A DNA stretch of 64,000 bases from Planomonospora parontospora (GTDB lineage Bacteria > Actinomycetota > Actinomycetes > Streptosporangiales > Streptosporangiaceae), in the NCBI RefSeq assembly GCF_014647935.1, contig NZ_BMQD01000004.1. One strand, given 5' to 3'. Under the pieces are notes generated by a model. That model ran no database searches. It had not been told where the DNA came from and saw nothing but the letters and a program-made list of their open reading frames with translations. The translations under genes and the position numbers were made by a program. Shown here piece after piece: positions 43,662 through 57,915 of this stretch (positions are counted from its first letter, which is position 1; the number at the start of each line of letters is the position of its first letter).

Positions 43662-43893
43662 CGCCGTTCACCCCCTGCCGGGCGCCCTCCCTCATCGGGT
43701 CGCCCGGGGTCGTCGCCGGAGCCCTACCCGGTCCCCGCCGCGCCAAAAGCCTCCGTCCGGCGCTCGTCCGGCGCCGGCCTCCACCGGAGGAGAGGGATCG
43801 AACCGCGCAGAAGTGGCTCAGATGGCGCGCCCGACGGCCGATGGGGTTTCCGTAACGGGGACCGAGTCGGCGAAGGCCGCTGCTAGGGGTGAA

Positions 43894-45573
43894 ATGAACC
43901 AGCTATTCTCGCCGCTGCTCAACGCACTGAAGCAGCTGGGGGTCGACCCGCAGGCGCTGGAGCGGGCGGCCGGGGAGGCCGAGCGCACCGGGCGCTCCCT
44001 GCGCGCGGTGCTGATCCACGACAACATCGTCACCGAGGGGCAGCTCACCGAGGCCTCGGCGATCGAGTACGGGATCAAGAGCGTCGACCTGGTCGGCTAC
44101 CCGATCGACCCGGCCGCGATGGCCAAGATCCCGCTCTCCCTGATGCTGCGGCACCGCGTCCTCGGTCTCTCCCTGGACGAGGACACGCACGAGATCACGG
44201 TCGGCATCACCGACCCGGGCGACGTGCTGGCCCTCGACGACGTGCGCGCGGCGACCGGGCTGACGGTCCGCCCCGTCGTGGTGGCTCGCAGCGACCTGCG
44301 CCACATCATGGACCGGCTCAAGCGCGAGGAGAACGACCTCGGCGACCTCGGCGAGACGCTCCGCGCCGAGCACCAGGCCGAGACCGTCTCGAACCTGAAC
44401 TCCGTCGACGAGGACGCGCCGATCGTCCGGTACGTCAACTCGCTGCTGGAGCAGGGCATCCAGAACCGCGCCTCGGACCTTCACCTGGAGCCGACCGAGC
44501 ACGACATGCGGGTGCGCTACCGCATCGACGGCGTGCTGCACGAGGTCGACACCGTGCCCCGGCACGTGCAGTCGGCCCTCATCTCCCGTCTGAAGATCAT
44601 GTCGAACGTCGACATCACCGAGCGCCGGATCCCGCAGAACGGCCGCATCACCGTCATGATCAACGGCCGGAAGGTCGACCTGCGGACCGCGACCCTGCCC
44701 ACCGTGTGGGGCGAGAAGATCGTGCTGCGCGTCCTCGACACCGGCGGCATCAACCTCAAGCTCGACAGTCTCGGCTTCACCGAGGACAACCATCACCGCT
44801 TCTCCGGCTCGTTCACCAAGCCGCACGGCATGGTGCTGGTGACCGGGCCGACCGGCTCCGGCAAGTCGACCACGCTCTACGCCACCCTCGCGGCGATCAG
44901 CAAGCCCACCGTCAACATCATCACCGTCGAGGACCCGGTCGAGTACCGCCTGCCCGGCATCAACCAGGTGCAGGTGGACCACAAGGCCGGGCTGACCTTC
45001 GCGGCCGTGCTGCCGGCGATCCTGCGCTCGGACCCCGACGTCGTGCTGATCGGTGAGATCCGCGACCGGACCACCGCCCAGCTCGCCGTCGAGGCCGCCC
45101 TCACCGGCCACCTCGTGCTCTCCACCCTGCACACCAACGACGCGCCCAGCGCCGTCGTGCGCCTGACGGAGATGGGCATCGAGCCCTTCCTCGTCGGCTC
45201 GTCCGTCGACTGCGTGCTGGCCCAGCGGCTCGCGCGCAGGCTGTGCGACTGGTGCAAGGAAGAGTACGTCCCCACCGAGGCCGAGCTGGCCGGCGCCCGG
45301 TGGCCCACCGGCGACCTGGCCCTGCCGGAGCGGCTCTGGCGGCCGGCCGGCTGCCGCAACTGCGCGAACACCGGCTACCGCGGCCGGATCGCGCTGCACG
45401 AGGTCATGCCGATGTCCCCGGAGATCGAGCGCCTCACCGTCCAGCACGCCTCGGCGAGCGAGGTGCAGCGGACCGCCGAGGCCCAGGGCATGCTCGCGCT
45501 GCGCACCGACGGCCTGGCCAAGGCCGCCGCGGGCCAGACCTCGATCCAGGAGGTCCTGCGCGTCGCGATCTGA
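43894..45573 (+). CDS. pilB: Type IV pilus assembly ATPase
   Basis: It has GspE_N domains, the Walker A GPTGSGKSTT, an Asp box, a His box and the tetracysteine CDWC...CRNC. The ATG at 43894 is preceded by AGGGGTGAA. The tool ORF starts at GTG 43813. Confidence 0.9.
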   Translation: MNQLFSPLLNALKQLGVDPQALERAAGEAERTGRSLRAVLIHDNIVTEGQLTEASAIEYGIKSVDLVGYPIDPAAMAKIPLSLMLRHRVLGLSLDEDTHEITVGITDPGDVLALDDVRAATGLTVRPVVVARSDLRHIMDRLKREENDLGDLGETLRAEHQAETVSNLNSVDEDAPIVRYVNSLLEQGIQNRASDLHLEPTEHDMRVRYRIDGVLHEVDTVPRHVQSALISRLKIMSNVDITERRIPQNGRITVMINGRKVDLRTATLPTVWGEKIVLRVLDTGGINLKLDSLGFTEDNHHRFSGSFTKPHGMVLVTGPTGSGKSTTLYATLAAISKPTVNIITVEDPVEYRLPGINQVQVDHKAGLTFAAVLPAILRSDPDVVLIGEIRDRTTAQLAVEAALTGHLVLSTLHTNDAPSAVVRLTEMGIEPFLVGSSVDCVLAQRLARRLCDWCKEEYVPTEAELAGARWPTGDLALPERLWRPAGCRNCANTGYRGRIALHEVMPMSPEIERLTVQHASASEVQRTAEAQGMLALRTDGLAKAAAGQTSIQEVLRVAI

Positions 45574-45742
45574 CGCACGGGTCACCCGCCCTCCCGGATC
45601 CGGGCACGCACCGCCCTCGGATCCGGAGACGAACGGCTCCCGGATCCGGCCCGGATCCGGACACGAACGACCCTCGGATCCGGCTCAGATCCGGGCACCA
45701 CCGGCCGAAGAGTCCGGCATCAGTACGGCAAGGAGATTTCCG

Positions 45743-56479: not shown

Positions 56480-56607
56480 GCCGGCGGGACGCCCTCCCGG
56501 CGGACCTGCGGCGGTGCGGCCCGCATGCGGGCGGGACCCCACCGGTCCGCCGGGATGAATCGAGGGTCCGGCCTAATAATCGGCCGGCGGCACCCGATGG
56601 GACCACC

Positions 56608-57915
56608 ATGAACCATGGGCGCCCGCGGGCCGGCCTCCCCCTCGCGGGACCCCCCGTCCTCCTCCTCGCCGTGCTCGGCCTCACCGCCCGGCCGTCCCCC
56701 GTCACCCTGGCCGCGACCGCCCTGCTGTACGGCACGGCAGTGCTCCTGACCCGCAGGCGGGCCCGACAGCGGGTCCGGTCGCTCCGGCACGCCGCCGAGG
56801 CCGTACTCGCCTCGGACGACCGCGACGCGCGCGTGGGGGCCGGTCACGGAGGCGAGCTCGGCGCGCTGGGCCGCGTCATCGACGCCATGCTCGACACGAT
56901 CGCCGCTCAGCGCGCGGAACTGGACCGGGCCGCCGCCGCGCGGGAGGAGCAGCTCCACGCCACGTACGCCGAACGGCGGCTCAACGAGCAGCAGGCCCGC
57001 GAGCGCGCCCAGAAGATGATCAACAGCAGCATCTCGGCCATCATGGGCGAGCTGGAGGTCGTGGCCGGCAAGGCCGAGGAACTGCGCGCCTCCGCCGACG
57101 TCATCGACGAGCGGGTCGGCGCCACCGACGTGCTGACCCGGCAGGTCGTCGAACGGGGGCGCCGGGCCGGTGACACCGTCGAGCAGCTGGAGGCGAGTCT
57201 CCGCGAGGTGGAGGGGATGGCGCAGGCCATCTCGAACGTGGCCGCGCAGACGCACCTGCTCGCGCTGAACGCCACCATCGAGGCCGTCCACGCGGGCGAG
57301 GCGGGCAGGGGGTTCGGCGTGGTGGCCGACGAGGTCAAGGAACTGGCCATGGCGACGACCCGGTCGACCGAGGAGATCACCTCCATCGTCCGCTCACTGG
57401 AGGCGAACGCCGGCGCCATGGCGAGCGCGCTCACCGGCATGGCCGGCGGTGTCGACGACCTCGACACGGCCACCTCGCAGGTCGGCGCCATGACCCGGCA
57501 GCAGCACTCCGGCGTCCAGCTGGTGCAGGAGTACCTCGACCGGGCGATCCGCCGGATCTCGACCATGGCGCGGCTGAGCGAGCAGCTCGAACGGCGCAAC
57601 GCCCCCCGCGCGCCGATCGGCGGCGAGACCCGGATCCGCCTGGGCGGCGGCAGCCACCCGGCACGGATGATCGACGTGAGCACCACCGGCCTCCACTGCT
57701 CCCTCCTGCCGGACAGCTCCCTCAAGCAGGGCGACCTCGTCGAGGTCGACCTCCCGCTGCCGGGAGAGCGGCCCCTGGCCCTGAGCGCGACCGTCGTCCA
57801 CCGGAGGGCGCACGACGGCACCGTGGAGATCGGCCTGCACTTCACGGACGTCCCGCAGGCGGCCGAGGACCGCGTCCACCGCTACGTCGTCGCGGCCCTC
57901 AGCGACCTCGACTGA
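56608..57915 (+). CDS. Methyl-accepting chemotaxis protein signalling domain fused to a C-terminal PilZ domain
   Basis: It has N-terminal TM segments. The MCP signalling hairpin is ISNVAAQTHLLALNATIEAVHAGEAGRGFGVVADEVKELA. The C-terminal PilZ-like region has RIRLGGG...DVSTTGLHCSL...GDLVEVDLPLPGE. Confidence 0.8.
   Translation: MNHGRPRAGLPLAGPPVLLLAVLGLTARPSPVTLAATALLYGTAVLLTRRRARQRVRSLRHAAEAVLASDDRDARVGAGHGGELGALGRVIDAMLDTIAAQRAELDRAAAAREEQLHATYAERRLNEQQARERAQKMINSSISAIMGELEVVAGKAEELRASADVIDERVGATDVLTRQVVERGRRAGDTVEQLEASLREVEGMAQAISNVAAQTHLLALNATIEAVHAGEAGRGFGVVADEVKELAMATTRSTEEITSIVRSLEANAGAMASALTGMAGGVDDLDTATSQVGAMTRQQHSGVQLVQEYLDRAIRRISTMARLSEQLERRNAPRAPIGGETRIRLGGGSHPARMIDVSTTGLHCSLLPDSSLKQGDLVEVDLPLPGERPLALSATVVHRRAHDGTVEIGLHFTDVPQAAEDRVHRYVVAALSDLD

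Follow-up and report, generated by a model that had tools for sequence, protein, structure and literature searches.

A probable spore-adhesion type IVa pilus locus with sigma-28-type promoters in Planomonospora parontospora

We analysed a stretch of 64,000 nucleotides (nt) from the actinomycete Planomonospora parontospora (assembly GCF_014647935.1, contig NZ_BMQD01000004.1), hereafter the window, with a focus on the cluster of pil genes on its + strand. Judged by profiles and motifs, this pil locus encodes a complete type IVa pilus machine of the monoderm kind, which comprises one major pilin, three minor pilins and, for retraction, a genuine PilT ATPase. It probably serves a zoospore-forming Planomonospora as an adhesion pilus that is co-regulated with the flagella. 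We favoured a role at the spore stage because the locus is syntenic with loci from Actinoplanes and from mostly zoospore-forming genera, and because it carries conserved promoters of the sigma-28 (FliA/WhiG) type. The zoospores of Actinoplanes missouriensis are reported to rely on their pili to adhere to hydrophobic surfaces, with transcription of the pilus genes by FliA/WhiG-like sigma factors (PMC8325347, PMC12871210). Planomonospora itself is listed among the genera with sporangiospores swimming as zoospores (PMC12691653).

The locus had 11 co-oriented and uninterrupted + strand genes: pilB, pilT, pilC, pilA, pilD, pilM, pilN, pilO and three minor pilin genes. They were assigned by profile searches (Pfam, NCBIfam) and a motif check. 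The extension ATPase PilB (559 amino acids (aa), 43894..45573, +) had a T2SSE domain (4.7e-136) and an MshEN domain. Its top NCBIfam model was TIGR02538 PilB, with 611 bits, which is under the equivalog cut-off of 675. The motifs present were Walker A (GPTGSGKS), Walker B, the Asp/His boxes, DVVLIGEIRD, TGHL/LHT and a zinc motif, CDWC...CRNC. By eye, the N-terminal segment of PilB, GRSLRAVLIHDNIVTEGQLTEA, appeared to lack the Gly, Gly and Gln positions of the cyclic di-GMP (c-di-GMP)-binding MshEN motif; the argument does not rest on this reading. The retraction ATPase PilT (371 aa, 45743..46858, +) matched the PilT/PilU family TIGR01420 with 479 bits, against a cut-off of 319, and its residues 20-359 matched the Geobacter metallireducens PilT structure 6ojx with E=4.7e-119. 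It carried Walker A, GELRD, a His box and AIRNLIRE at residue 308.

The platform protein PilC (407 aa, 46869..48092, +, with an alternative ATG at 46827) had two T2SSF domains (5.2e-65) and was matched by PilC-type NCBIfam models at 1e-116. The prepilin peptidase and N-methyltransferase PilD (262 aa, 48760..49548, +) had the domains A24_N_bact (3e-36) and Peptidase_A24 (1.7e-12), with two CxxC pairs (CPAC...CAAC) and GFGDVK. The actin-like cytoplasmic alignment protein PilM (345 aa, 49615..50652, +) matched PilM_2 (4.3e-41) and TIGR01175 (167 bits, cut-off 133). PilO (210 aa, 51374..52006, +) matched Pfam PilO with 31.8 bits (cut-off 22) and T2SSM with 2.6e-06. Between them, the bitopic PilN-like protein (240 aa, 50652..51374, +) gave a weak match to Pfam PilN, with 19 bits, below the cut-off of 22.8. 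The pilN call was backed by conserved position and topology, since all relatives have the gene between pilM and pilO and the protein begins with an ...ADLLPPE motif ahead of a transmembrane (TM) helix.

The major prepilin PilA (153 aa, 48216..48677, +) matched N_methyl (4e-09) and PilA4 (5e-05). It had a 17-aa leader, longer than the classical leader of diderm type IVa pilins, a cleavage motif G|FTLIE at residues 17-22, and C-terminal cysteines at positions 118 and 150. From mature residue F18 on, its N-terminal helix aligned with the type IVa pilins of Geobacter, Neisseria and Pseudomonas. An AGGAG ribosome-binding site was found 5' of the pilA ATG. Just upstream of pilA, at 48110-48147 in the pilC-pilA spacer, we observed two adjacent GC-rich hairpins, TTCCGTG-cgcgc-CACGGAA and CCGGCC-gcga-GGCCGG. 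Both were kept in both Planobispora loci, with differences in the second loop, and neither had an Rfam match. These hairpins might be an mRNA processing or stabilising element.

All open reading frames (ORFs) and gaps between 43.8 and 58.9 kb were accounted for, and none encoded the secretin PilQ or PilP. This is expected in a monoderm, and does not speak against membership in the monoderm subclass. All genes of the locus aligned with their orthologues over the full length, and none was frameshifted. A first-pass annotation of this DNA had described contiguous, co-oriented pilB, pilT, pilC, pilA, pilD, pilM, pilN and pilO, a retraction ATPase in a high-GC actinomycete, three pseudopilins, no pilQ or pilP, and no frameshifts. 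Profiles, motifs and orthologue alignments agreed with each of these statements, with pilN as the weak profile match, and with the third pseudopilin modelled as a GspI/GspK-like modular minor pilin carrying ricin-type lectin domains.

The pilus machinery is thus established by homology and intact motifs, from which we infer its activity. A silent evolutionary relic, or a secretion pseudopilus that forms no surface pilus, would be another way to explain such genes. The GspE, GspF and GspG models also matched pilB, pilC and pilA, and filaments of this organism are predicted from its genes. Against this, all 11 core genes were intact and of orthologue length, and their catalytic motifs were preserved. 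PilT and PilM/N/O typify type IVa pili and not type II secretion systems, and no GspC, GspD or GspL was present. In addition, the gene order and promoters were kept across three families (see below), which argues for purifying selection. We therefore consider a relic or a pseudopilus very unlikely.

The DNA of the pil locus was 93% identical to that of Planomonospora sphaerica. More distant relatives were sought by a pattern-limited PilC scan of one genome per species, covering 185,579 species. PilC identity was 84% in Planobispora siamensis and Planobispora longispora, 72% in Cryptosporangium, 63-66% in twelve Actinoplanes, Winogradskya and Paractinoplanes genomes, and 58-64% in two actinobacterial metagenome-assembled genomes (MAGs). 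Beyond these named relatives and the two MAGs it stepped from 58% down to 45%, and uncultured Actinomycetota, Acidimicrobiia and Desulfuromonadales had 45% or lower. Synteny was assessed by tblastn of every window protein against 23 loci. The full 11-gene order was kept in both Planobispora species, Cryptosporangium, five Actinoplanes/Winogradskya loci and the MAG “Actinobacteria bacterium 69-20”, the latter with pilB inverted and pilD not detected by tblastn. Seven further Actinoplanes/Paractinoplanes loci shared at least pilB to pilO.

Compared with ten genomes of the Actinoplanes group, the window had the same pilB-T-C-A-D-M-N-O order, followed in several members by the same Ig-like-domain, plain and ricin-lectin minor pilins (Ig-like, immunoglobulin-like). 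Protein identities ranged from 48-58% for PilA up to 63-74% for PilB, PilT and PilC. Both have CTCA-N16-GCCGA promoters 5' of pilB and pilT, and the host of the window would likewise have flagellated spores, its genus being described as zoosporic. They differ in that the window comes from another order and family, Streptosporangiaceae instead of Micromonosporaceae.

The promoters were recognized by a de novo motif found 5' of pilB and pilT, which equalled the published FliA/WhiG1 consensus CTCA-N16-17-GCCGA. For the actinobacterial sigma-28 family, two consensus forms have been described, CTCA-N16-17-GCCGAACT for the FliA/WhiG1 type of A. missouriensis, and, for WhiG2, T(A/C)AA-N16-GCCGATAA (PMC12871210). 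We scanned both strands of the window (128 kb) with a position weight matrix (PWM) trained on relatives only. The best match in the window was the sigma-28-type promoter of pilB, CTCA-N16-GCCGATGG (43817..43844, +, 20.5 bits), an exact match to the published consensus. In an alignment of the DNA upstream of pilB from 14 relatives, a conserved CTCAG-N15-(G/T)CCGATGG was found about 50 nt 5' of a conserved ATG(A/G)A(C/T)CAG pilB start. The site was kept in place in 13 loci, from Planobispora, Cryptosporangium, Actinoplanes and Winogradskya. The ATG-AAC-CAG start at 43894 was kept in the relatives and is also the start annotated in GCA_042660865.1. Since the conserved promoter falls between 43813 and 43894, the pilB start is most likely the conserved ATG at 43894, rather than 43813.

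The second-best match was the sigma-28-type promoter of pilT, CTCA-N16-GCCGAAGA (45684..45711, +, 18.2 bits). Equivalent sites, CT(A/C)A(A)-N-GCCGA(A/T), lay between pilB and pilT in Planobispora siamensis, Cryptosporangium and seven Actinoplanes/Winogradskya loci. This promoter probably drives pilT to pilO, and pilA is assumed to be co-transcribed from it. A further match at 45718-45746, with 16.2 bits, overlapped the ribosome-binding site and ATG of pilT and was treated as probably spurious. The pilB-pilT spacer also held, at 45586-45698, an imperfect tandem repeat with a period of 23/34 and ~2.5 copies, comprising about six copies of GGATCCGG and running into the pilT promoter. The repeat was not found in the Planobispora spacers; it may serve as an array of regulator-binding sites or may have arisen by simple expansion.

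The fourth-best match was a candidate sigma-28-type promoter of the minor-pilin operon, CTAA-N16-GCCGATCG (52150..52177, +, 14.2 bits), with one mismatch in the -35 element. Five loci outside the training set had such a site as well, 56-108 nt 5' of the orthologous gene (L001, L004, L007, L008 with 21.2 bits, and L012). The pilB, pilT and minor-pilin sites were conserved in position across three families, Streptosporangiaceae, Cryptosporangiaceae and Micromonosporaceae.

All of the five top PWM matches in the scanned 128 kb, including the probably spurious one, were on the + strand and in intergenic DNA of the pil locus, which on this strand makes up ~0.9% of the search space. There were 5, 3 and 2 matches with at least 13, 16 and 18 bits, respectively, compared with means of 1.6, 0.23 and 0.05 in a first-order Markov null. 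Because shuffled sequences occasionally reach 20 bits, single PWM scores are not decisive, and the weight lies on position, strand and conservation. No sigma-70-type promoters or intrinsic terminators above the shuffled expectation were found in the pil locus, and no Rfam elements at gathering thresholds or at E<=1. The Rfam search thus gave no sign of a riboswitch or other known RNA element controlling pilA, such as the c-di-GMP riboswitches 5' of clostridial pilins, and this reading was rejected.

These results bear on where the pili would act. The first-pass annotation had proposed twitching or gliding motility, surface sensing or DNA uptake, which are generic proposals for such pili; synteny and the sigma-28 promoters favoured adhesion at the spore stage instead. 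Pili of growing hyphae or cells, powering twitching, gliding or surface sensing through PilB/PilT cycles, would agree with a genuine PilT having all its motifs, and type IVa pili that have PilT classically serve motility by retraction, as in Clostridia and Streptococcus sanguinis (PMC3244431, PMC8179133). However, the only promoters detected were of the sigma-28 type and conserved across families, with no sigma-70-like promoter in the locus. The close relatives were nearly all from genera with swimming spores. No non-motile Streptosporangiaceae was among the close matches of the pattern-limited scan, which is not proof of absence. Moreover, the sole actinomycete pilus phenotype found in the literature is the adhesion of A. 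missouriensis zoospores (PMC8325347). We therefore judge a motility pilus of the growing hyphae to be unlikely. A competence pilus for DNA uptake appears most improbable: no ComEA, ComEC or DprA-type gene was found in or beside the locus, the ComG models stayed far under their cut-offs, and the predicted tip modules are Ig-like and lectin domains, not DNA-binding ones.

These tip modules belong to the three minor pilins encoded downstream of pilO. The first is a modular minor pilin (606 aa, 52234..54054, +), with a PilV-like prepilin motif G|FTLME and four He_PIG Ig-like domains. It matched N_methyl with 26 bits (cut-off 21.2) and He_PIG with 8.8e-45 in four stretches, and gave a weak PilV match. 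The combination of N_methyl and PF05345 is listed among the frequent modular pilin architectures, with examples from Actinoplanes included (PMC8179133). Minor pilin 2 (280 aa, 54054..54896, +) had a class III signal, G|LSLTE, followed by a hydrophobic helix, an N_methyl match of 17 bits, which is below the cut-off, and a position kept in the relatives. Inside its gene, at 54457-54503, a perfect-looking 15-nt tandem repeat in three copies encoded QTGQAQTGQAQTG. The protein has 288 aa in P. sphaerica and 280 aa in the window, and the repeat may vary in length from strain to strain.

The third is a modular minor pilin (517 aa, 54926..56479, +) with a predicted GspI/GspK-like pilin module and two ricin-B (beta-trefoil) lectin domains. 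At its N-terminus no prepilin motif, no PilX_N and no other profile support was detected, and Glu5 was lacking. Its family had a near-invariant Gly followed by a hydrophobic helix. An AlphaFold2 model built with 40 homologues (pLDDT 82) had a 55-residue N-terminal helix, a four-stranded sheet and two beta-trefoils. Structural comparison gave values of 7.0 for S. sanguinis PilA, 6.9 for EpsI, 6.9 for GspK, 6.4 for XcpV, 6.4 for a Thermus competence pilin and 6.2 for GspI. Foldseek ranked XcpV at the top, with a non-significant E of 0.1. From the model, the N-terminal module would have a minor-pilin fold, and the protein is best described as a GspI/GspK-like modular minor pilin. It is probably a glycan-binding tip adhesin, for which it is a candidate. 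The architecture that defines modular minor pilins, an N-terminal pilin module with a grafted functional module, was found in the locus.

The ricin protein was 91% identical to its counterpart in P. parontospora subsp. antibiotica. Its named homologues came from Planomonospora, Planobispora, Actinoplanes, Amorphoplanes, Winogradskya, Couchioplanes, Krasilnikovia, Jidongwangia, Symbioplanes and Nucisporomicrobium, genera mostly known for motile spores.

Taken as a pilus of the swimming spore, the system would work as follows. A sigma-28-family factor (FliA/WhiG) would transcribe at least three units at sporangium or spore formation, pilB alone, pilT-pilO and the minor-pilin operon, as we infer from the conserved promoters and the published Actinoplanes work. 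PilD would cleave and methylate the prepilin PilA and the minor pilins. PilC, together with PilM/N/O, would form the membrane platform, on which the PilB hexamer would extend the filament through the wall without a secretin, and PilT would disassemble it. The three minor pilins would prime assembly and sit at the tip, displaying the four Ig-like domains and the tandem ricin-type lectin; their folds and the precedent of modular pilins point toward this placement. The pili would fix the swimming spores to a surface before germination, and retraction by PilT would pull the spore onto it.

Several observations weigh against an adhesion pilus of zoospores under sigma-28 control. In two of 30 shuffled sequences the top score reached 20 bits or more, and the sites of the minor-pilin operon and of the MCP-PilZ chemoreceptor gene discussed below both depart from the strict consensus. 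The pilC-pilA spacer contained no sigma-28 site, and no separate promoter for pilA was found. No flagellar or che genes were found within the 64-kb window. Further, some genera bearing orthologues, e.g., Krasilnikovia and Jidongwangia, are not known to be motile. Finally, orthology was established to Actinoplanes species other than A. missouriensis.

Type IVa clusters with pilT have been known in Gram-positives since 2011 (PMC3244431), and pil clusters with WhiG sites have been reported from Rubrobacter, Cellulomonadaceae, Cryptosporangiaceae, Jonesiaceae and Sanguibacteraceae (PMC8325347, PMC12871210). The first-pass annotation had named Tad/Flp pili as the type commonly described in actinomycetes. 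The idea that type IVa pili with PilT are unexpected there did not hold, as they are already described for Actinoplanes, Rubrobacter and other families, and the novelty of the locus is therefore modest. Among actinobacterial type IV pilus clusters, that of Rubrobacter radiotolerans resembles the window in its division into about three transcription units, all of them headed by a sigma-28-family promoter, and the organism has c-di-GMP signalling genes near the WhiG/RsiG-controlled cluster (PMC8325347); it differs in being unicellular and non-sporulating. S. sanguinis and Clostridium have monoderm type IVa pili with modular minor pilins (PMC8179133, PMC3244431). While S. sanguinis grafts vWA and concanavalin-like modules, the window has four He_PIG Ig-like domains and a tandem ricin-B lectin in their place. 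In contrast to both, the ricin pilin of the window has no detectable class III signal motif or Glu5, and its pili would be under the control of a flagellar-type sigma factor and belong to the swimming spore.

In the literature covered, we did not find three features, which may be new: (i) the extension of the cluster and its three-promoter layout to Streptosporangiaceae; (ii) the ricin-lectin protein as a putative cryptic modular minor pilin; and (iii) a conserved leaderless sigma-28 promoter of MCP-PilZ receptors. The analysis widens the Actinoplanes zoospore-pilus paradigm to a second actinomycete order, with a gene order and sigma-28 promoter layout common to Streptosporangiaceae, Cryptosporangiaceae and Micromonosporaceae. 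It also gives, with the ricin-lectin protein, a testable candidate for the binding target of zoospores, and sets the conserved machine apart from its chance neighbours, MCP-PilZ and a protease.

Downstream of the 11 pil genes, also on the + strand, there were the MCP-PilZ gene and then the protease gene. MCP-PilZ (435 aa, 56608..57915, +) had two TM helices, a HAMP domain, an MCP signalling domain and a C-terminal PilZ domain. The matches were MCPsignal (3e-21), PilZ (1.3e-15) and a weak HAMP, and the chemoreceptor hairpin tip was conserved. The PilZ motifs RxxxR and DxSxxG were present as RNAPR at 330 and DVSTTG at 356, and R330, R334, S358 and G361 were invariant in 19 actinomycete homologues. 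Hundreds of MCP-PilZ proteins were found in motile actinomycetes, many of them with a CHASE4 sensor. The protein resembles Tlp1 and Aer of Azospirillum brasilense and Cbp1 of Azorhizobium caulinodans, in which an MCP signalling domain is likewise followed by a C-terminal PilZ with intact RxxxR/DxSxxG (PMC3604760, PMC6406031, PMC6454048). It differs from them in the actinomycete host, the minimal sensor, in which hardly any outer loop joins the two TM helices, the candidate sigma-28 promoter and the predicted leaderless mRNA.

The candidate sigma-28-type promoter of the MCP-PilZ gene, CTAA-N16-CCCGATGG (56573..56600, +), was the fifth-best PWM match in the window, with 13.1 bits. Sites were likewise found 5' of the orthologues in P. 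sphaerica, Planomonospora corallina and Planobispora siamensis, in the last within an unrelated neighbourhood. In four out of four cases the start codon lay 8-9 nt past the -10 element (8 nt in the window), from which a leaderless mRNA is predicted.

In the window, as in P. sphaerica, MCP-PilZ adjoined the pil cluster. The two were separated by three unrelated genes in P. corallina, and in Planobispora siamensis the MCP-PilZ orthologue was found on another contig, among unrelated genes. We rejected MCP-PilZ as a conserved pilus regulator, as it is beside or near the pil cluster only in Planomonospora. These data are best explained if it belongs to the same sigma-28 regulon, without being a pilus component. 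As a separate chemoreceptor of this regulon, it would probably pass the c-di-GMP status to flagellar chemotaxis.

A wider, speculative proposal, to which we give limited credence, is that zoosporic actinomycetes share a swim-then-stick module. In it, one flagellar sigma factor would control a retractile pilus with a lectin/Ig tip, so that spores recognise pollen, fungal or plant glycans, beyond mere hydrophobic sticking, and in Planomonospora a leaderless MCP-PilZ would couple c-di-GMP to stopping and attaching.

The window differed from GCA_042660865.1, another assembly of the same genome, by three homopolymers, at 56649 (C6 vs C7), 56835-56836 (G5 vs G3) and 59826 (C6 vs C7). The first two of these indels affect the 5' part of the MCP-PilZ gene and explain the protein of 342 aa annotated in GCA_042660865.1. 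The MCP-PilZ of the window, with a continuous HAMP domain, had the same length of 435 aa as its P. sphaerica orthologue and was 99% identical to it, indicating that it is not frameshifted. The homopolymer differences are probably sequencing or assembly errors in GCA_042660865.1.

The protease is a membrane-anchored trypsin-like serine protease (57962..58891, +, Trypsin_2 4.6e-20). It was held by a 1.1-kb segment (57949-59053) without counterpart in P. sphaerica, where MCP-PilZ directly abuts or overlaps an AraC-family gene; the flanks of the segment were 93-97% identical. The protease was rejected as a pilus component, given the indel relative to P. sphaerica that contains it and its absence 3' of the cluster in the other relatives. 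Both genes had initially been counted as parts of a locus spanning 43813-57915. They are indeed present, but they are not conserved components, one being linked to the cluster in Planomonospora only and the other lying in a strain-specific 1.1-kb segment. The borders shift as well: pilB more likely starts at 43894, and 57915 is the stop of MCP-PilZ, with the protease beyond it.

Directly 5' of the pil locus, at 30878-42132, there was a possible methylation-associated anti-phage defence island. It encoded a 744-aa protein without Pfam hit, a 1717-aa DUF3686/DUF7902/AAA ATPase, a PP2C phosphatase, an N6-DNA methylase (PADLOC MTase_I 3e-91, mad2 7e-20) and a Ser/Thr kinase (PD-T4-6 2e-96, mad6 1.5e-65). 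Elsewhere in the window, three alpha-amylase-family genes on the - strand (9990-16329) resembled treX/Y/Z-like genes for trehalose formation from glycogen. A SARP/BTAD-AAA regulator of 1200 aa was encoded at 18321-21926, and a tRNA gene was found on the - strand at 62176-62247.

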